Positions 4,245 to 58,623 of a stretch of DNA of 64,000 nt are shown here, piece by piece. The stretch is taken from contig NC_087245.1 of assembly GCF_037042905.1 (NCBI RefSeq), forward strand, positions 18,540,001 through 18,604,000. Reading direction: 5' to 3'. This DNA comes from Lytechinus pictus. Taxonomy: Eukaryota. Positions within the stretch are counted from its first letter, which is position 1. Every line of letters begins with the position of its first letter. A program made the translations under genes and the position numbers. The notes under the pieces were generated by a model. The model saw nothing but the letters and a program-made list of their open reading frames with translations, ran no database searches and was not told the DNA's origin.

Positions 4245-5000
4245 GATCTTAATACCATTCCAATACAATGCATAGCCAGATAGCATAAATGTTACTGTTT
4301 GACCCCTAGTATTAGTCTGTCTTTCTTAGCCTCGGCTACCTTAGACTAGTTTTAGTCTTAGAAAACTAAAAAGTTATGAATTTTATGCCAAGAAGCAAGA
4401 TAAAGTCTACCTAAGCCTAGGCTAAGTTAAATGCATGGTGCTGGTGGACACTGACAGACACAGCACATGTGTTTTATTGTCAAATTAACTTGTTAGATGT
4501 GCTGGTCATCTTGACTTTGTTTAAACTTTGTTGGGAATGGGATAGGAACCGCATACTATTGAGATTGCATGTAAATAACTAAGCACATAACTTTCAAGCG
4601 TCATAAGTAATTCTTTAATTATGACCCCCTCCCTCTGGGTCTTTATATTCAGCATTCAGTTTTGCAGTCATCAGGGTGTCGAGACAGTCCATGGCAATGA
4701 CATTGATGATAGCTTTTGGTTGAGTAATGAATGTAAACCCTGATTGTTATTGAAAGGAGAAATTAAGAAAAAACATAAGAGAAAGAGACAATCTAGATCT
4801 ATATTTTATTGTCACAAAGTCAAAAATGCAACTCCTGTTTAAATACACAATGCAGGCGATACTACCTTGGCATGGGCATTCCATTAGTTGATTTTTTTTG
4901 GTAATCATTTTAATTTTCATTTTTTATCAACAGGGTGGAATATTGCAGTCTGAACTCAACAACTGATGTTTGAATGATCCAGTGAGCAAACTTTGTGGAC

Positions 5001-6226
5001 ATGCTTCACTTGAGATTTTCTCAGCTGAAGCTTAGACAAGATCCAACTCGACAGAGAACTGCATCAGATTTTTCTGGAGAAAAGATTGATATAGCAATGG
5101 ATCTTGTCAGTGATGAGACAGATAAAGCAGGGCAGCCAGGTGAAAGTAACTTTCTGGTTCCAGACATTTCAACGAGATCCAGCTTGGATAGCATGAAAAA
5201 GAAGCTAGAAAGGATGAAGCACTTCAGGTCTACGCCAGGCCCTAGACCAAGTCCTACAAAGGGATGGGATCAGACTGAATCAGCTGGACATAGACATGAT
5301 AGAGATATTTCTCCTCTTGCATTCGGTCGAGTTCCAATGTGTAGTCCAAACTATTTGGGACGAAAGCCACCAATGTCTGAAGAGCTGGCTAAACTCTGTT
5401 CAGATTCCCCAATATCCCCTTTCAAGTCTGACTCGGACAATTCCTCATGCCTTTTCGCAGATGATTCTTTCCTGTCGTCGGCTGATTTTGCAGACGATGT
5501 TTTTGATATTTCCTCTAGAGATGCCAGATTTCATAATGAACGCTCCCATTGGAACAGGCATGATTCTGAGGTTTCCTTTGATAAATATGGAAGAGAAAAT
5601 GAATCTGCAGTGACGAAAGGGGCAGCAATCGCAGGCAGTCCTAGCAAAATAAGGCACAAAAACTCCCGGGCGATCCGACGCATCAAGAGTGCATCCTCCT
5701 ATCGCTATTGTCCCTTTAAATCCTCTCCACAAAAAGCAAATACGACATACTCTGGCACAAGATGGTATAAAGCCCCAACAGACACACAACTCTATGAAGT
5801 AAGGAAAAGAGAACTCAAAGAATCTAACCAAGCTGCTTCTAATGCCATCACCTTGCCAAAAAGGGTCTTGCAATTTGGAGTTTGTGACAGTCAAGCCAAT
5901 CAGCAAGATCATTTTGTAGAAAAGGCCAAGACTGAAATCCATGTTGAGCTAGCTACCAGTAGGACTGAAACTCCTGAATCAGGCTATGGTTCATTGAATA
6001 CTACCCGTCAAACTCCAGATTTGGTACTCAGCGAAACCCCTGTGACCAGATTACCATTTCCAAGAACTGAACATGTTCCTTCAAAGAACAATTCTTCGTA
6101 CAGGATCATCAATACCCATGCTGTCCCTTGGCTTGAGAAGTTTGACATTATATCCAAACTTTATGGTATAGCATCCCATGTTGTGGAAAAGATCTTCTCC
6201 TATTTAGGACCAAAAGACCTTGTGTT
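5001..6226 (+). CDS. FBXO5: Emi1/Emi2-family F-box APC/C inhibitor (FBXO5/FBXO43-like), coding exon 1
   Basis: Long ORF; ATG 5001 follows in-frame stop at 4983; acceptor at 4931-4933; ESGYGS degron-like motif; F-box start HVVEKIFSYLGPKDLV; donor GTAAGT at 6227, phase 2. Confidence 0.85.
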
Positions 6227-6983
6227 GTAAGTAGTACATTCTTATTTCATGGTTTTATATGTCCTGCTTGCAAAATGCAAAGTTCTGTAAGTCATTGATG
6301 ATAGACGCACTTTAAAATCTATCAACTAGAATCAACTATAAGATTTTGAGAGACATAAGTCTCAAACTTGCTACCACAGACTTAAGTTGCAGGAGCACTA
6401 TGCTTTTGTGTTTTATCTTACTTGACAGACTGAGACTTCATTGAATCTCTTTTCTATTGGTTATCTGGCATTTATACTGTATGTGATAATAATTTACTGT
6501 CTTTAGTGGGTTATATTATGGTAATGATGACTTTTAAGTTATTAACCAAGAAAGGAATGTATTATCATTCTGTCAAGAAAATATCCAATAACCTACTAAA
6601 ACCTAGTGATCTACACTTTAAAAAGCTAAATGAGTGAATATTCTTCCTGATCTGTTATTAAAGCTACATGTATATTATTTGTTGGGATTGATTTATTTCT
6701 CTTTTTTTTTGGGGGGGGGGTGCAAGTTCAACACCCATTGGTTTCTTTGTTTTGGGTGACTAAATGAAATTTAGTCTTGATACTCTTGAAAAATGACAGA
6801 GGATGATTACCAATTCCATTACATGTACAGTATCAACTAATCATTCCATGAGAAATATTCACTTATAGAACATGGCAGTGTGAGATGTGAGTGACCAATA
6901 CTAATCCAATAAAAATCAAAAGTATGGTAATAAATTTCTATGCTAACAATTTTGCATCGTTACTGTTTCATCCCGTTGCCCAG

Positions 6984-8709: not shown

Positions 8710-9620
8710 CTAAAGCCCCAAATTCATAGAAATTGAAAGACAATCCTTCATATTGTCTTTAATATATCCATCCTTAGCAGTCTCCGACCTCCACCTACCA
8801 TGTTTCTTAAACAACCTGTCTGGAACACCACAGTTCGCTGCTGCTGTGGCTCCGTCACTTCGGAGGCTATGCATGCCAAAACTCTTTGGATTCAACCCTA
8901 CTTTCGCCAACGCCTCTCTCAATAATTCTAAACATCTAGTATAAGACAACTGTCCACGTCTTAACTTGTAACTATTACTGGATTTACAGTAATTTAGAGG
9001 CCTAAAAAGAAATACTTCATCAGAGGCATCGTTAAGCCCCGCTGCAATCAAATATTTCCTCAAAGCTAATACGGGGCAGGTGGGGAATTTGTAGCACCTA
9101 TAAGAACCCTGTAAATATCGGTTTTACTTTTCATGATGAAAGTATTCACATGAGACAAATACAAGTCTAAATCACATTTACGAATATGTATCATTTCATC
9201 AAATCGTAGAATGCCTGCGTAGGAAATCAAAATCATAGCACATAATCGAATATCTAATAGACTCGTTGAAGATCCATACTTCTCAACAACTGCTTTCAAA
9301 ATGTCTGGGGTTATAACTTCTTTCTTAACGATCGGTTTGTTTAGTAATTTCTTTAAACATTGTAAAACAATATGTATGAACTTGCGATCACAGGGATTAA
9401 CATTCATCCTTGGCTTGCAGTCAAAATGCCACTTAATGGCGTAAAAAGCCGATTCTATCCTCGAATAAGGAGCTTCTCTTTGATACAAATGAATAAGATA
9501 GCGACTAATATCTTCTGGTTCTGCTGTGTCAGAATTTACTTTATTTTGCTTACACTAATCTCTCCAGGTATTCAACGCTCTGTTGTATTTACTCATAGTG
9601 TTATCAGCTCTCGAAGCTGT
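8710..9620 (-). pseudogene. DIRS tyrosine recombinase, disrupted
   Basis: YAGILRFDE (catalytic R), HSLRSDGATAAA (HxxR), HGRW, KDGY; split over ORFs 9066-9488 and 8710-9063. Confidence 0.85.
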
Positions 9621-10499
9621 CAAGACCTTGTTCAAAGTTATATCATATCCTTCATGAAGAGAATTTCTGGATTTAAGAAAAATTAAACAAAAACTTATAA
9701 GCTGGTATATATTTATCTCAACACAATATATTCAAATTGTGATAAATTCTCAAGTTCAGTCATTCTTATCAAATTCTCAAAATTTAATCACTTCTAATAC
9801 GTTTTACAGCCATGACAGCAAAATTAAACATTAACTATGCAGCTATCCTCAAACCAGGTGGTTTTATATTTTCACTAAAATTTCAGTATGAAATTCATTA
9901 GATCACAAATCCATATCATAATTCGTTTCAATCGTCTTGACGGCTTAGCAAAACAATAGCTTTGGGATTCATTTCCTTTGCGAAAATATTTATTTTTGCC
10001 TTAAAACACTTGCAAAAAACTTTCTGAAACATTTCATTCACAAGAATTCTGTAATTTTGAGACTTTGAATGTTTTCAATCATCACCAATTTCTTCATTCT
10101 GAGCTCCGCCGCCAGTAAATTATAACTAATTTGAGAATGAAATCTCATATCAATTCCTTATCAACCTTTACGATGGTTATCCTTTTACATAATCATAACA
10201 TTCTCCAATTTCCATCACCACTTCTTTGCTCTGCAGCATAAGTGGATCCTAGCTATGCAGCTATCTGCCATGCGGCCGTGTAAAAATTACATGTTGCATT
10301 CCAACAGTATAATTTTGAATTAACCTCCATCAAATGGATTTATTACATACCAGCATTCATGTCAGCCATCTCTCACAAACCGTTTTTTTTTTTTTTTTTT
10401 ATTTTTTTTTTTTTATTATTATTTCTGCCTTGAACGAAAATTCCTTGAGGATTATCAATTTTGAAGTATTCAGAGAATAAGGAACGAAAATCACTTTGT

Positions 10500-12150
10500 T
10501 CAGAGAAAAGAATCGGCCAGAAGGGTGCAGACGGCCAGAAGGGAACAACCAAAGTCCCCCTAGCAGAACAAAACCTTCAGATGCTTAAGTACTTGCCCTA
10601 TACATGCTATACATTCGATAGGTGGAACCAAACCAATTATTCTCGCCCGACCAATCACATGAGAAGGGATCAACATGATCTATTAGGGGACACCAATATT
10701 TAGAATTGAACTTCTTAATTTTGAAATTAAAATCGTCCGCAAGTCTGTCCACAGTGTGAGGGCCCCAGATTTTGTCCAAAAATCCGACAAATTCATCTGA
10801 CACACCCCAATCATCAAAATCTATCATGCGACTTAGTGCATCTGCAAAACGGTTCTCCTCTCTGGGAGCCCAATGAACGTGAAGACTAATGTTGTTTCTT
10901 TTACACAACTCAAAGATGTGTAAACTCATCTCATGCAATTCTGCAATCATACTTCCTTTATTTACAATCGATCCTACTCCTTTATTATCACAGAGGACCT
11001 TGACAGTTTTATGTCTCATGTGAGATACAACTGTTTGCAGTGTCATACCATGGACCTATTACTTGAGTTCTCTCCAAGTGGAGTTTTTAACCATTTCAAA
11101 CTCAAACCAATCTCATCCCATTTCATGCCTGCGCACTCAGAAACCCAGGCCCCGCAGCCTGATGGACTTGCATCAGAATAGATGAAAGTCTGTGGAACTG
11201 AATAAGCAGAAATAATGTTTACGTTAAGAATATGCAAATTCTTCTCCAGAAGAAGAACACGAATATTAATTCATCACTATTGATCACATTATGTCCTATC
11301 CCAATGTACCCTCCGGATGATTTCGTGATGCATAAATCTGGTTTTAATTTGAGTAACTGTGCCAAACACTGGATACAATGTATCTTTCCAACTATAACTA
11401 CGATCTTTCGTTCTGAAACCTCAGGCAATTCTGCTTGAAATGAATCTGAACATAACTCAAGATCCTTCATCCTTCTTTCAGTAATCTTTATATAAGCTAC
11501 TCTGCTTTCCCGTGGTAATCCTAACCAATCCAAACACTGGACAGGAGTCCATTGAGATATTTCTCAACATTTGGTATCAAACCTGTTTCAAGTAAGTCAT
11601 TTTTCACCGTCTTGACCATAGTATCATACGAATCAAAGGAAGCAGCACGACCCAATCATCTATATACAAAAAAAAAATGAAAATACCATTTCTATACGCC
11701 AATGATTAACGATAGGCTTAAATCGTGTAATGAAAACAAAGGTAGCTGTTGCCAACCCAATGACAACACCTAAAAGGAGAAAAACCTTGTACCACTACCA
11801 AAATCCCAACTAAAGCCTACAATTTTTCATGCACTTGAAAAATGTAATAATGATGATAACCTTGCTTAAGTTCAAAGGAAAGCATAAATTCTCCCTGTTT
11901 TAAATAAGACATGACTACATTCCAGTCTTCAAGTATAATAGTGTTCTTCCACAAGTGTTAGTTGACATAACGTTAACCAAGAATCAGTCTCTTTTTATAT
12001 CTGAACTCTGAATTGAATCTGAAAGGGGGTAACATCATGGGGTGCAGTGGTGGATTCAACAACCAAACCCTTTTTAATAATAATTCGTTAATGGCTTCAG
12101 AAACGAAATCGGGATCGATGTCAATGCTGACTTATCATCTTATTGTAAGG
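10500..12150 (-). pseudogene. DIRS pol: reverse transcriptase, RNase H and methyltransferase-like domain, many frameshifts
   Basis: RT: LKQGYHH and YIDD (~11660); RNase H: YSDASPSGCG, VLCDN, WAPREENRFADALSR; MT-like: WGPHTVDRLA...FNSKYW...DWSGENNW then VPP after a frameshift. Confidence 0.8.
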
Positions 12151-44260: not shown

Positions 44261-45034
44261 TTAAACTAACCTAACCAGGTTGAGAATGCATTATTCAGAG
44301 GTTTATTACGATATTATTACGATAATTAACTGTTTCACAGCACACAGTTATCATAAAAATATCTCTATTCGCTTTAATTTGTTTACGGAAGATAAATACA
44401 GAACACGATCCAGAGAAGGTAAACATCCTTTACTTGTTCCCCATAATTTCCTTTTATTAGTCTAGAGTGCATGAAGTGTACATTGTGCATGTATTTTATA
44501 TTGCTTTCTATAACAGGAAATAACCTTCTTATATCACGTGTATCAAGAGGTTAACAAGTATTAGAGTCGAAAGGTGTATCTGAACTCTTGGTTCCATTAT
44601 CAAACAGCAAACTAATGTTTAAAAAAAGTCAATTTCAAACTTGCCAAGAATAAGAAAGTTATTTTTTTCAGGACATTAAGTTTCTAACCATGGTTTTAAC
44701 AACATTTTATGCATCTAGACAGATTTCCATTAAAATAACTCTAAGAACATAGATATGTGTAGGCGAGAGTCCTTTCCTTTCCCCACAATTATAGGGACAG
44801 TCCCTTCTATATGGCAGGTATGCATTGCAATTAGTCTGCAGGCACAGACCCTAATTGGCATTGTAAACCAAGCCGGTTCATTATATAAGTCGCAAGTACC
44901 AACTTGCATGCTACAGTACACCATTCCCATTAACAGTTGGTAGTCTGAAAATGCAGACCACTATAGCATGTTTGCCAACTTGGGGTTTGGGCCTGCAAAC
45001 TATATTGCACACATGCTGGTCTTATAGTACTTAC

Positions 45035-45127
45035 CATGACCTCAATGTCTTCTTGCTTCAGGACAGCTGCGTCATACGTAGGCTCGCAAACTCTCACAAC
45101 CTCCTTGATCTGACGCTGTTTCAGCTC
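45035..45127 (-). CDS. PTP4A1: PRL phosphatase, coding exon 2
   Basis: ELKQRQIKEVVRVCEPTYDAAVLKQEDIEVM; conserved VRVCE.TY motif. Confidence 0.95.
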
Positions 45128-46135
45128 CTGCAAAAAAGAAAGTGGAAAAGGGGTGAAATATCATGTTGGGTTTATGAAGGCACCTAGCCTGGTGCCCTGT
45201 GGTAATCCCCATTGTCCCATTGAAAAGTAAATTTTACTAGTTATGCCCTTTTGTGATTAATTAAAAAACGGCCTTGTCCTTTTGAGTTCTTAATTTGAGC
45301 CCTGTATGGCTGTATGAATAAAAACATCTTCTCCAAAACTCAAACAAACCACCACAAATCATCTTCTGTTGCAGATCTTCTTCACAGGTTTTGATTTTGT
45401 ATTTTGATTATTCCATGTTACTTTAATGTCATATAGCTCCTTTGGAAGTTCTAAATTTGAATGAAAATACAAACAAAACCAATCAATCATAAAAATTTAC
45501 TGTACTACTAAAAGGGTTTAGTATACATGTAAATACATTAGTACATTCTGTCTTGCAGACAGAATGGGTTAAAAACCTAGACAAACAAACTCTGTTTCAG
45601 TCGACATGACTTAAAAGCATAAATCAGAACATTTGTATTAGAATTCATATACTGCTACTAATTGCTGCACTCAGACAGCTATTTTCAACTCTCCATCTAT
45701 CACGTACACACTTTAGTATTTGATTACAAAAATAATCTGCACTTAGCTGACAAACATCTTAAGCACATGAACAATGTACAAATAATCAGACAAATTATAA
45801 CTGTAATTGTCATTTCAGTTCACCATTTCCCTCAGCTTGTACTCTGTTTATCATGTACAGGCACAGACACTAATCTAAATTTGAAACTCTTAAGTCTATA
45901 ACATACTACATTTATTTGTCTACAATACTCATTTTTCACAAATGAGTTCCCTGTATATTATTTTGGAAACATTTTTTTTTCTTTTCTGCTGTTGAAAATT
46001 ACATCAATAAGGATTAATTGAAAGATTGCATGAATTGTTTCAGTTTGAAAACCTTAAAAACATAATTATGAGCAAAAATATGTCACTTGAAAACCATCTT
46101 GCTATTTTTTTAATGGTTCAGAACTTCAGATTTAC

Positions 46136-46261
46136 CTTGATGAAATGCTCCATGCCATTCTTATCTGGGTTATGGATGATGAGGAATCTCATGTGCTTGT
46201 GTACAATCTCCACAGGAGCAGGACGTACGCTCCGAATAGAACTCATGTTTTGGTTCTTCAT
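46136..46261 (-). CDS. PTP4A1: PRL phosphatase, coding exon 1 (alternative ATG at 46246)
   Basis: MKNQNMSSIRSVRPAPVEIVHKHMRFLIIHNPDKNGMEHFIK; RPAPVE...MRFLI.HNP motif; AAG|GTAAAT donor. Confidence 0.92.
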
Positions 46262-46595
46262 GGATGGACGACAGTAGAAAGAAAAGGTGCCCTTCCTAAG
46301 GTGGACAAGGAATCTCTTCTGGAAGATCTTGCTGGTCTTATTCCCCTTGGCTCTGTCAGTCCAACTCCACGTCTGAATTGAGAAATACCTCAAAATTCTT
46401 TCTTACTTGTCCGGGTTAATGCTTTGTTGGAGGGGGATGGGGCCAGTGACCGGTTCAATGATAAAATCGTAGCAAAATGAAGTTGATTGGTGAGATGGAA
46501 AGAATGGGAGACAACTCTGAGAAAAGGTTATGAGGATTTTATACAAAAAAAAGAGAACTTAAGGCTACCACGGGGAAAGGGAGGTCCTGCGCTGA

Positions 46596-46751
46596 TTACC
46601 GTGCAGGTCTTCTGACTCTCACACACCTTGGAGGCACCTGCCAGTGCAGTTGGCTCTCGCACACCCGGTCCACCTGAACTTTACCCCATTCGTGGGTCTG
46701 TCCGCGGCAGTGTCGGCAAGCACACGCCGAAGCAACGTGAACGCACCACAT
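46596..46751 (-). CDS. Candidate uORF peptide (51 aa, Cys/His-rich) in the PTP4A leader
   Basis: MWCVHVASACACRHCRGQTHEWGKVQVDRVCESQLHWQVPPRCVRVRRPAR*; GC- and CpG-rich relative to flanks. Confidence 0.45.
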   Translation of the reverse strand: MWCVHVASACACRHCRGQTHEWGKVQVDRVCESQLHWQVPPRCVRVRRPAR

Positions 46752-46987
46752 AGGCGTAGGAATTGCACGTGTAGTTCACACCCCTGATGCCGGGGGCTAA
46801 AAAATTTGAGATTGCGGGGATGAGATCCAACGAACAACCAATCCAACTTGTAGCTCTCTCATGCAAAGAGCCTTTTGGTCTGCTTGGCAGGTGAATGAAG
46901 TACTCTTTGAGTTTGATTTCGCTCTGAGCGAAGAGGCAAGGATAGTTAGTACTTGACAAAAAAGTATTTCTTGATGCTGACAACAAT

Positions 46988-47038
46988 TTATTTGTGTTGA
47001 CTTTGGCAGTATTCTCCAGAGTCCAAAACAGACGCCAT
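46988..47038 (-). CDS. Candidate uORF (16 aa) near the start of the PTP4A leader exon
   Basis: MASVLDSGEYCQSQHK*; first ATG after the strong acceptor at 47066-47068. Confidence 0.45.
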   Translation of the reverse strand: MASVLDSGEYCQSQHK

Positions 47039-48811
47039 AAATGCTTGGTTTAAAATAGCTGAATCCTGAAGAAAGAAAAAGAGAAAATGAAGAGGATGTT
47101 AAATCATGCCACATTTTTTTACCTGAATTAACTTTAATAATCATGCTAAACATACAAAAAAACCAATAACTTTCACAATTCAAACTATACTTTATCAAAA
47201 GAGGATATCAAAAGTATAAGTTACATTTTTTAAGAACGTTTTGATGGCTTCCATTTGATTATTTCATATGTAAGGTTCCTTACATACAAACTCCACATTA
47301 TATTACTCGACTATCAATATTACATGTGTATCAACCCTAAAAAAAATGTATTATCTGCATTTAATAGCAACAGAGTAATGCAACATTACACACAGGACTG
47401 GGTTGGCAGATGATGTCATGAATGAATATGCTGGCAAAAGACAAAAGTAGACGAGGATAACTGCCAAAAGAGCCCCCTAGCTAAACCGACATCCGGCCAT
47501 GGGCGAACAACAGGTCACGAATGAGAAGTTTTCAATTTCCTTTGCCAACCACGCTTTCCCCTCCCTTTCTGGATAAAACTATTAGTGAAAGCTTGAACAA
47601 AAGAATCTCGACTAATTTGTAATTTTTTACAAGTGATCCCATAGGATATGCATATACATACATGTAGGATATGAGTAAATTCCAACAAATTCAGTCGTTT
47701 TCAATTTTGTACCCTTTGGCACACTTTTGAAGTTATTTCATGAGTCATCCACAAACTGTACATTACTTCAACCCTAGTTTTGAGGACAATTTCATAGTAC
47801 ATGTACATGTAAAGTTTTTTAGCTAATGCTGAATTTTTGTAATGAACAATTATTTGAAAAGGCCTTTTTTCTTAAACTGAATCTGTCTCTTTCACTTCTA
47901 AAGATAGAAAGAGTGTAAAACTAATTGAGTGTTGAAGGCATGTGAAATAGCAATGTTCAACTCCACCTTTCTGAACTGTGGTGTGGAACCAGTAATGTTT
48001 CATGTATGAAATGTAATCTTGTAAAAAAAAAGATGTGAGAGAGTGAGGCAAGTGAGCAAAATTCTATGATTTCTATCCTTGATAATACAAAAATATAATT
48101 TTTGACAGATTTTAACATACCGTACATGTACCATATTCAGAAATAAATATCATATTCTCCCATTTTCCTTTCCTCCTTCTCAACTCTTTTTTTTAGACAA
48201 GAAAATTTTGGGGTGGTCCACGGCCCCCAATCCACATCTGTACGCCAGTGGCCTACTGTACATGTTGGCCTACTGTACAGGATTTGGTATTGAAGTGCAA
48301 CACACACTACTTGACATTACAAATTCCTAATTGTTAACACATAAAAACCATTATCTCCTTCCTTCACCCTTGGAGCTTCAGGAAACTTGATCAACAGCAG
48401 ACTCTCACAGTTGTCCCACTTAAAGCCTATGACTTGCTTTCCTTCTTTGAACTCTGTATGACCTTTATACAGACAGACTTGGAGTAATCTAATACCCCCC
48501 TTCCATCCAGAACAAAGGTGGTTTATCCCCTGTACACTACAGTATACGGAACACAGGGTGTAGTGAGGCACACATGATTATAGTCTTATGTACAACTATT
48601 ATTTGTTCCATACATTCAGTTGACTATCATAGATCTGAAGAATTCTAAACTTAGCACCATGGCAAAGAGCTACAGTACACAGTATGTGTGCAGTACACAA
48701 TACACATCATACATGTACAAGTACATCATACTGTACAGTATCATTTATGTGCAGGGTATATGTTTATGGGCATGTACATGGGTATTGACTTCCAATGTAC
48801 ATGTACATGTA

Positions 48812-50571: not shown

Positions 50572-52850
50572 GGGGTGACCGGGGTTAGTTGGAACGCGGG
50601 GTAAGTTGAAACATTGTAATTTTCTTTAACGTCTTTAAATAAATTTCTGCAATACTGCCCTCAATTTATTGTCATTATCAACAGCCATTCACCATATTAC
50701 AGACAACACATGTGCAACAAGCCTGGTGAAGTTAGAAAGGAATTTTAGTTTTTAGACCTTCTGAGTAATTTTTTTCTCTTTCAGAAATGTTTTATTATCT
50801 CAGAGAAGTTTATAGATCAAGTTGGCCAGTTTGGGGGTATAATAGACACTTGTACCAAGCTACAAAATGAGGTTATTAATATGCCATGGTGAAGTCCCTT
50901 TTTGTGCTGTAAGCTTATAAACGTCAAATGGGCCTCCGGGGTTAGTTGGAACAAAATTGAAGGGGCTAGTTGGAACATGTTCCTACTTACCCCAAACATA
51001 ATTATGAATAAAAACATTGGATATGAGAAAAAAATATATAAAGTATTTCACACTCTTCTGAACATGTATTGTATACCATGCTTGTTTTGTTTATCAGTTA
51101 ATAGGTCTGAGTGTGCATTTAAGGCCTATTGTAGGCCCCTAATGCAATATTAACCCATATCAAACTGGGGGGGGGGGTTCAATTTGAGCCCCCCCTCGAA
51201 AAATGTCGTCACTACGCCGTCGCGCGAATTTTTTTTACTACACTCCTCGCTGACTTTTTACTTTCAAGTTTTGCGCAGCATTTGAGACCAAATTTGCGAT
51301 GCCTGTGTGCGCGATTTCAAAATTACGCAACATTTTGTACGTGCATGTCGGACCAAAAATTGCTCAAAAACGTGATTCCATGTACAAGGTCAATGCAAAT
51401 TGTGTTTTTCAACCAAAAGTCATAAATGTATGATTCTTTTTTACTTTTGTTGGTTCAAATAGATTTATTTTATGCTACTTATGATCGCAAAAGAGTCCCA
51501 ACAAAGTTCATCGGAAAAAACAAAGGTTAAACAAAACAAAGAAATACAAATAAAAAACAAAAAATACATAAGAAATTATATTTTTTGCAATTTTTGATGG
51601 ATATTTGTTAAAAATGTGAAAATTGATACTCTCACCAAAAATTAGCATTCTACTAGCTTAATACATAGAGTTAAAGGCAAAAACATTATTAAAAAAAAAA
51701 CAAATTTAGGGCAAATTTCATATGCTTATTTGCATAATTAATTAATGAAAAAAATATAAACAATGAATTTTGTCTTGTAATTTTGATGCAGAAGTACATG
51801 AAATTGCTGATAGTACACTTAAAGGAGAATGAAACTCTTGGAGCAAGTTAGCTTTTGTGAAAGCAGAAAAATCAAAGAATAAGATCAACAAAACTTTGAG
51901 TAAAATAGGACTAGCAATAAAAGAGTTATGAGCATTTGAATGTCGAGATCACTAATGCTATGGAGATCCTCCCATTGGCAATGCGACCAAGATCTGTGAT
52001 GTCACACACGTACAACTCTCCCATTTGGACACTGAAAATATACCCCAAAACATCTCTTTTTGCTCATTCTAATCATATGACAAACGATTCATCAATGATA
52101 TAATGTTGTGAAACCTCTGTACTTGTCATCTCATACAGAGAACACGTCACCTTGTGATAGACTCTATAAAAGTGAGAATATAAGTGAAATAAGTACTAAA
52201 GTAATGAGGGAGTTGTACGTGTGTGATATCACGGATCTTGGTCGCATTGCCGATGGGAGGATCTACATGGCACTAGTGATCTCAATATTCAAATGCTCAT
52301 AACTTTCTTATTATTCATTTAATCTTCCTCAAACTTTCAACAATATGTTTCTTTGATTTTTCTCTTTGATATGGATTCAGCTGGTTTCAAGGGTTTCATT
52401 CTCCTTTAATTGCATGTAAAATCAAACGCACCCAAATATGCAGAATTCTACTACACAGTCTGCTTGCGTGAGTGGCTGTATAATAGAAAACATAAAGTTC
52501 AACAAATCCACATTTTGAACTTGAAAAAAATAAAGCAAATAGGCTAAAAGCATGTAATATTACAGTTTTAAGTAGTTTTAGTATAATTCTTAATTGACCA
52601 TGCATTGTTCCAACTTACCCCATACAATGTTCCAACTTACCCCGTATTGGGGTAAGTTGGAACGCTTGCGATGGTCTTGTTCAAGGCGGATTTTTTTCAG
52701 TAACCATAATAGAGTTAAAAATTTTATGGGGTACATTTGAAGCCCTTAGATATATGCTTCAAGCTGATATATTGATTGTTTCTCGAATAAAATCTATTTG
52801 GATTTTACAGCCATTTTTGTCAAAAATGATCCAACTAACCCGGTCTCCCC
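50572..52850. mobile_element. TA-flanked GGGG...CCCC element with nested insertions
   Basis: TA|GGGGTGACCGGGGTTAGTTGGA ... TCCAACTAACCCGGTCTCCCC|TA. Confidence 0.75.
51819..52409. mobile_element. TTAA MITE family B, copy 1
   Basis: TTAAAGGAGAATGAAAC ... GTTTCATTCTCCTTTAA; inverted copy at 57795-58386. Confidence 0.85.
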
Positions 52851-57656: not shown

Positions 57657-58623
57657 TACCCCTTTCATAAACCCAATTATGCGGCTAGTAGCAGCATAAT
57701 TTGGTCGTAAAATCGGAGGAGGACCAGAGTTATCCGCATTATTTTGATGCTGCAATTTTCCGCATAATAGCGGCATCGGGACCAGATTTTGACTTTAAAG
57801 GAGAATGAAACCCTTGAAACCATCTGAATCCATATCAAAGAGAAAAATCAAAGAAACATATTGTTGAAAGTTTGAGGAAGATTGAATGAATAATAAGAAA
57901 GTTATGAGCATTTGAATATTGAGATCACTAATGCCATGTAGATCCTCCCATTGGCAATGCAACCAAGATCTGTGATGTCACACACGTACAACTCCCTCAT
58001 TACTTAAGTACTTATTTCACTTATATTCTCACTTTTATAGAGTCTATCACAAGGTGAGGTGTTCTCTTTATGAGAGGACAAGTACAGAGGTTTCACAACA
58101 TTATATCATTGATGAATCGTTTGTCATATGATTAGAATGAGCAAAAAGAGATGTTTTGGGGTATATTTTCAGTGTCCAAAAGGGGAGAGTTGTTCATCTG
58201 TGACATCATAGATCTTGGTCGCATTGCCAATGGGAGGATCTCCATAGCATTAGTGATCTCGACATTCAAATGCTCATAACTCTTATATTGCTAGTCCTAT
58301 TTTACTCAAACTTTTGTTGATCTTATTCTTTGAATTTTCTGCTTTCACAAAAGCTAACTTGCTCCAAGAGTTTCATTCTCCTTTAAGAACGCATTTTCAA
58401 ATAATGCGGATAATTGCCATGGTGCGGTCACAATGTCACCCTTTTCCAACACAACCGCATCGGAGGGGGCGTGTGCAGTTGTCATGACGATTATCCGCCT
58501 TTTTCAGGACGGGCGCAAGTAAAAATAGTGCGGATTATTTTCGGAGTTTGTGAACGCATTTTTATTGAATTATCCGCATTACTCTTAGGTGGCTTATTGG
58601 AGGATGGGTTTATGAAAGGGGTA
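57657..58623. mobile_element. PIF/Harbinger-like MITE containing family B copy 2 (57795-58386)
   Basis: TCA|TACCCCTTTCATAAACCC ... GGGTTTATGAAAGGGGTA|TCA. Confidence 0.8.

Follow-up and report, generated by a model that had tools for sequence, protein, structure and literature searches.

A conserved-peptide uORF and a two-codon micro-uORF in the PRL/PTP4A leader exon of Lytechinus pictus, with a 51-codon Cys/His-rich frame that is probably a passenger

Introduction

The closest described systems are the uORFs of the mammalian PRL (PTP4A) genes. The human PTP4A1 uORF represses in a sequence-dependent way, as stated in part of Takahashi 2020 (PMC7530721), and uORF repression of PRL in mammals eases with falling magnesium, a result of Hardy 2019 that is related in passages of PMC11855589 and PMC10083557. 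The action of PRL on CNNM magnesium transport is established, according to the same passages of PMC11855589. The conserved PTP4A1 uORF is given a range from human to fish in an excerpt of PMC3914846, and PTP4A1 mRNA is described as resistant to eIF2 repression in a section of PMC4383229. Rows of the supplement of Crowe 2006 (PMC1402274, in part) supplied the conserved PTP4A1 peptide of human and mouse used here, and we infer that the published magnesium-sensitive uORF is the PTP4A1 peptide row of that supplement. The part of the PMC4568590 supplements that was searched holds no uORF row, and PRL is not mentioned in PMC2276209.

The window analyzed here is a stretch of 64,000 nucleotides (nt) from Lytechinus pictus with a PRL/PTP4A gene on its minus strand. 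An initial annotation, made from the sequence alone, had proposed that a 51-codon Cys/His-rich frame upstream of the PRL start is a metal-sensing leader peptide. In our analysis, the conserved control elements of this leader are probably a conserved-peptide uORF (uPEP) and a two-codon micro-uORF, and the 51-codon frame is real, yet probably a passenger, either incidental or lineage restricted.

Results

The features of the PRL leader and the coding exons are collected in Table 1. For PRL coding exon 3, the best solved-structure matches are PTP4A1/2/3 (E value of 5e-28). Alignments of three contig sets and one run of stranded raw reads to positions 45000-48000 provided the RNA evidence; a run search among the indexed rows listed no carrier recorded as RNA. 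All stranded reads on the leader exon are oriented as minus-strand RNA, and the raw-read depth is 38 to 48 over the 51-codon ORF and 39 to 68 elsewhere in the exon. A single joint is listed for this exon, which leads to the next coding exon (33 reads), and none is internal. The reads and the sole listed joint thus bear out the proposal that the 51-codon segment shares an exon with the PRL start (ATG 46261) and stays in the mature mRNA; since the whole exon is present in spliced RNA and has no joints inside, the segment is not spliced out. The loose end at 47065 is identical in the window's organism and in a relative. The upstream exon is represented by a 17-nt piece; allowing up to 3 mismatches, this piece gave 0 matches in the window, which places that exon outside the window.

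Table 1. Features of the PRL/PTP4A gene in the window, listed in the direction of transcription
Feature	Position	Strand	Basis or remark
Leader-plus-start exon of PRL/PTP4A gene, 930 nt	47065-46136	minus	Read depth, joint, loose ends
3' part of uPEP uORF, 25 codons plus stop, internal ATG 47038	47065-46988	minus	Translation; human and mouse rows
122-codon open frame, ATG-free until final Met-Gly, ends at micro-uORF stop	47049-46681	minus	
21-codon uORF, peptide not conserved	46862-46797	minus	Relative: 3 substitutions, 2 non-synonymous
213-nt GC-rich block, no difference to close relative	46806-46594	minus	Contigs of two studies
51-codon Cys/His-rich uORF	46751-46596	minus	Translation gives 51-aa peptide; inside PRL/PTP4A leader exon
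Two-codon micro-uORF ATG-GGG-TAA, inside 51-codon ORF, other frame	46689-46681	minus	13/19 clusters
PRL coding exon 1	46261-46136	minus	tblastn to PRL start exons of at least 27 loci; donor site, joint
PRL coding exon 2, 93 nt	45127-45035	minus	Joint, loose end, sequence
PRL coding exon 3, HCVAGLGR active-site loop	43026-42821	minus	Boundaries read from sequence
PRL last coding exon, basic stretch plus CaaX-like end	42337-42223	minus	Sequence; tblastn to PRL loci

Several further observations concern the gene and its surroundings. The first PRL intron is longer than 16.9 kb. At position 46966, all four runs differ from the window (68/68 raw reads), and because all of them disagree with it, the window base is either a private allele or an error; a one-base insertion at 46544 is polymorphic. 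A second PRL ATG lies at 46246. Its start context is more favorable (A at -3), several other loci have starts that align with it, and it may be the true PRL start. Several inverted-repeat elements lie in the PRL introns between 44005 and 58387, e.g., at 51818-52409 and 57795-58387, with identities of 96 to 97%. Elsewhere in the window, broken tyrosine-recombinase and RNase H-like frames with weak PF00589 and PF13456 hits (8710-11055, minus strand) resemble what we take to be a DIRS-type retrotransposon remnant, and a 414-codon exon at 4986-6230 (plus strand) lacks a Pfam hit and has an end that looks like an F-box start, presumably as in Emi1/FBXO5-type proteins.

The leader exon contains four upstream ATGs, at 47038, 46862, 46751, and 46689, of which the initial annotation had seen only the one that opens the 51-codon frame and missed the other three. 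ATG 47038 lies inside the uPEP uORF, which continues into the upstream exon: in the loose-end consensus, read by eye, an in-frame ATG precedes the junction by six codons, so that uPEP has at least 31 codons. Its start there reads Met-Cys, as it does in two spliced loci (L029 and L033), in which the uPEP Met-Cys likewise stands six codons before the splice position. Aligned by eye, 10 of 20 ungapped residues of the window peptide are identical to the human PTP4A1 uPEP. The two share a core, SG[DE]YCQxQH, and the splice and stop positions are common to PRL leaders of other animals.

A degenerate scan for this core across metagenome contigs yielded 55 loci. PRL coding sequence lies downstream in 28 of them (27 in the main listing plus L017), 7 have the same flanks without PRL being reached, and 20 are unrelated and served as controls; the 28 and the 7 together make up the 35 leaders considered below. 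The scan pattern fixes the core residues, and the upstream Met, the Phe, and the acceptor are free of it. The window and 27/34 loci have an AG acceptor that precedes the core by exactly 45 nt, compared with 0/19 controls; likewise, a Met stands six codons ahead of the core in the window and 32/34 loci, compared with 2/19 controls. Because the acceptor and the Met agree outside the search pattern, the homology of the uPEP loci is confirmed. In most loci the core ends 1 or 2 residues from the stop, and synonymous variation is seen throughout, with several codons per motif position among 18 representatives and Ser drawn from both codon families. The PRL of L017 clusters with an annelid protein and the start exon of L037 matches vertebrate PTP4A1 (E value of 1e-17), and the uPEP uORF therefore spans protostomes and deuterostomes.

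In the window, the uPEP stop lies 726 nt before the PRL start in the same exon, and the uORF has its own stop and is unfused to the main ORF. Judged by its sequence, the uORF ending at 46988 is the orthologue of the mammalian conserved PTP4A1 uORF. The idea of a mammalian type of uORF control in the PRL leader is thus upheld by the uPEP homologue, whereas the ORF chosen for that role was the wrong one: the 51-codon peptide has no SG[DE]YCQxQH core and no likeness to the human uPEP, and its frame and start are not kept across animal orders, so that it is not the counterpart of the magnesium-sensitive uORF of mammals. The window uPEP departs from the consensus at several positions upstream of the core, and for this reason a magnesium response of the window uPEP is an assumption.

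Two variants of the leader were seen among the loci. In a cluster of 13 loci (L008, L009, L013, L015, L018, L019, L024, L031, L035, L044, L047, L051, and L054), an upstream stop shortens the uPEP to about 16 codons, and an invariant ATG-TAG is followed at once by a second ATG that is in frame with PRL and that, as far as the reading frame tells, could yield an N-terminally extended PRL. In L010 (1-80), only 25 nt separate the uPEP stop from the PRL start and the micro-uORF is absent, so that this locus is either a short-leader form or a spliced isoform.

The second shared element is the micro-uORF. ATG-GGN-stop was found in 13 of 19 independent leader clusters (the window included), where 0.2 are expected from shuffles, and in 0/20 controls. 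It stands 42 to 298 nt past the uPEP stop; in the window, it follows uPEP by about 300 nt and precedes the PRL start by about 430 nt. Deep conservation around it spans only about 13 nt. Within 320 nt, the micro-uORF is absent from 6 of the 18 other clusters. In the 13-locus cluster, where it is lacking, ATG-TAG stands about equally far along in 13/13 members, and L017 carries ATG-Asp-stop in place of ATG-Gly-stop. L010, L026, L049, and L053 have no micro-uORF within 320 nt (an ATG-Gly-stop of L053 at 700 nt was left out of the count). A pyrimidine-G-purine triplet usually stands before the micro-uORF in the window and 17 loci, and the micro-uORF possibly occupies the loop of a tiny hairpin (consensus energy of only -1.3 kcal/mol, with no compensatory changes). 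The literature searched, made up of sources other than the primary paper on the mammalian uORF, holds no mention of the micro-uORF.

In the frame of the 51-codon ORF, the bases of the micro-uORF read E-W-G-K. We considered and rejected a conserved W-G-K peptide in this frame, since 10 of the 17 loci with ATG-GGN-stop have lost that reading. The idea that the micro-uORF of other animals is spanned by an unusually long open frame was likewise rejected, both alternative frames being similar in length.

Translation reproduces the 51-amino-acid peptide with its C-x-H-x4-C-x-C-x2-C spacing (6 Cys and 4 His in all), and 334 nt without an ATG separate its stop from ATG 46261, in agreement with the ∼335 nt given initially. 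The start context is weak, with C at -3 and T at +4. A location in a GC/CpG-rich island within CpG-poor DNA had also been described. The first half of this description is accurate, with a GC content of 0.60 (top 0.25% of 156-nt windows) and 11 CpG (top 2.3%) in the ORF; the second half was overdrawn, the background being merely mildly CpG poor (observed/expected ratio of 0.54). When the window leader was shuffled, an ATG ORF of at least 51 codons was seen in 56% of the shuffles and one with at least 6 Cys in 6.9%; a count of at least 10 for Cys and His together, a post hoc measure, was rarer (0.9%). Each of the other two frames over the same bases contains 4 Cys, 5 of the 185 ATG ORFs of 40 to 70 amino acids in the window have at least 6 Cys, and the codon-position GC is flat (0.63/0.56/0.60). 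The length and the Cys count of the 51-codon ORF are unremarkable and near chance. A single-sequence structure model of the peptide was low in confidence (pLDDT of 62, pTM of 0.38).

Comparison with a close relative revealed, outside the two uORFs, three indels and 18 differences in 570 leader sites; the counts are 0/156 in the 51-codon ORF and 0/78 in the uPEP part. Positions 46309/46310, 46524, and 46970 (seen in one run only) and 46966 (shared by all runs) were left out of these counts. The invariance of the ORF and the block has a Fisher P value of 0.018 and a scan P value of 0.034. Measured from the micro-uORF ATG, the block extends 117 nt in the upstream and 95 nt in the downstream direction and is thus centered there; relative to the 51-codon ORF, it reaches 55 nt beyond the start and 2 nt beyond the stop. 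At the leader rate, 3.8 non-synonymous changes (P = 0.02) and 1.1 synonymous changes would be expected in the ORF, and because so few synonymous changes are expected, the block cannot tell peptide constraint from nucleotide constraint. A structured leader RNA is not indicated: the block has a structure z score of +0.92 with no stable fold, the lowest z score among 18 windows (-1.4) lies outside the block, covariation analysis gave 4 weak pairs without a compensatory change, and Rfam yielded no match near threshold. Tandem repeats in the block were not found.

Extended invariance of this kind is not confined to the window. In the L005/L034 pair, no stretch free of differences within 1.3 kb is longer than the one from -26 to +48 around the micro-uORF, and L001/L012 show 11 differences in the first 500 nt compared with 88 in the next 900 nt; the L003/L014 pair was left out, as it diverges 58 nt past the micro-uORF. 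Other lineages thus show similar local conservation around the micro-uORF without any long uORF. These two further pairs, together with the 11 CpG that are unchanged in the relative, speak against the view that the 213-nt block is largely a product of chance and uneven mutation rates, that only about 13 nt matter, and that the 51-codon ORF has no role. That view draws on a scan P value that is modest even under a uniform rate, on a rate-setting pyrimidine-rich spacer that may evolve faster, and on the frequency of 51-codon ORFs in shuffles; we consider it unlikely. Because deep conservation at the micro-uORF covers about 13 nt, the full 213 nt are not entirely explained.

A peptide-level explanation is that the 51-codon ORF is translated and has been selected in this lineage as a zinc- or metal-binding micropeptide or as a nascent-chain sensor on top of an older switch. 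The deficit of non-synonymous changes, the end of the block 2 nt past the stop, the rarity of the Cys plus His count in shuffles, and the presence of the exon in mRNA all agree with selection on the peptide. The invariance in the relative is genuine and is the strongest evidence for the initial proposal. The block, however, begins 55 nt before the ATG and is centered on the micro-uORF, and the weak start context and the flat codon-position GC also count against this explanation, as do the homologue searches. In the 35 PRL-type leaders, searched up to 1,600 nt by blastn with the block and by tblastn with the peptide, only short chance matches were obtained (best E value of 0.02, in an alternative frame of uPEP itself), and no leader has a likeness to the peptide or its cysteines. 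The upstream in-frame ATG of the 51-codon frame is missing in 17/17 loci that share the micro-uORF anchor. A single long ATG uORF, an unrelated 109-codon ORF in L048, was found in 27 leaders, the scan for ATG ORFs having covered only about 170 nt in the 13-locus cluster, with the upstream in-frame ATG taken as the PRL start. Conservation of frame and cysteines is therefore lacking in distant animals and present in a single close relative with identical DNA.

Protein-level searches gave a similar picture. Among 1.8 billion representatives, the peptide matched three long repeat proteins only; protein collections contained no candidate near its length, none that scored among longer proteins, and not the exact sequence; Pfam returned 0 families at an E value of ≤1, known metal-binding families included; and the Atlas search produced no usable hit, which shows neither absence nor novelty. 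Blank protein searches count for little, as uORFs are seldom called in such collections. Taking both sides together, we regard selection on the 51-codon peptide as quite improbable; metal binding found no support.

Equally improbable is the proposal that constraint acts on a long non-AUG uORF (47049-46681), the C-terminal 42 codons of which would explain the upstream half of the block. The frame is open for 122 codons, 4 of its 6 substitutions in the relative are synonymous (P = 0.03), and the same frame is open back into uPEP in L003 (81 codons) and L033 (52 codons). Corrected for three frames, however, the P value becomes 0.09; moreover, the lineages show no peptide similarity to one another, a stop directly precedes the ATG in five loci, no homologue was found, and the 87 invariant nt past the stop are left unexplained. 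Least likely of all, and highly improbable in our view, is that in this lineage the 51-codon ORF is translated across the micro-uORF into a nascent peptide that has been selected for metal binding and grafts a second metal input (e.g., zinc) onto an animal-wide, two-part magnesium switch.

Discussion

Our preferred reading, to which we assign a probability of roughly two in three, is that PRL translation is set by an ancient two-part uORF switch in the leader, with the 51-codon ORF as a passenger. Ribosomes translating uPEP would stall or terminate slowly at the invariant C-terminal SG[DE]YCQxQH and block scanning. Under ample magnesium, uPEP would hold ribosomes near its stop, so that scanning to PRL would be limited. 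Those leaking past or reinitiating would then meet the two-codon micro-uORF, which may fix how many ribosomes regain initiation competence before the PRL start ∼430 nt farther on; the step at which the micro-uORF sets reinitiation or leak-through is the more conjectural part of this scheme. The 213-nt invariant block could then represent nucleotide-level context around the micro-uORF. If used at all, given its weak start context, the 51-codon ORF would serve as an additional decoy whose effect does not depend on its sequence and whose translation runs across the micro-uORF, and its cysteines would stem from TG-rich, GC-rich DNA. The peptide that was flagged initially is itself probably ordinary.

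Read in this way, the leader control of PRL-1/2 that is known from mammals predates the protostome-deuterostome split. The conserved part of uPEP shrinks to a nine-residue core beside the stop, and the two-codon uORF travels with this core. The deeply diverged uPEP copies form a natural alignment that names residues to mutate for magnesium sensing, and the micro-uORF is a second element for such work.

Among known systems, the uORF of human and mouse PTP4A1 is the closest to the window uORF that ends at 46988: the two belong to the same gene and share the C-terminal core and the F-M spacing, and the splice acceptor of the window uPEP is at the same place as in the vertebrate-type loci L003 and L037. 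They differ in the number of residues after the core (1 in the window uPEP, 6 in human and mouse PTP4A1), and the window peptide has diverged upstream of the core. The TRPM7 magnesium-sensitive uORFs (Nikonorova 2014, as cited in passages of PMC11855589) are likewise a case of uORF control of a magnesium-network gene; TRPM7 differs in that competition between the uORF and the main ORF is described there.

With 6 Cys and 4 His in 51 residues, the 51-codon peptide is similar in composition to zinc-binding Cys/His motifs and metallothionein-like peptides; unlike these, it has no Pfam match, and no conserved Cys/His ligands were found in distant animals. Short uORFs that permit reinitiation or consist of a start and a stop are known from systems of the ATF4/GCN4 type. 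By analogy, the two-codon ATG-Gly-stop could work in the same manner; in contrast to the ATF4/GCN4 type, it is the inhibitory peptide uORF that comes first here, with the micro-uORF downstream.
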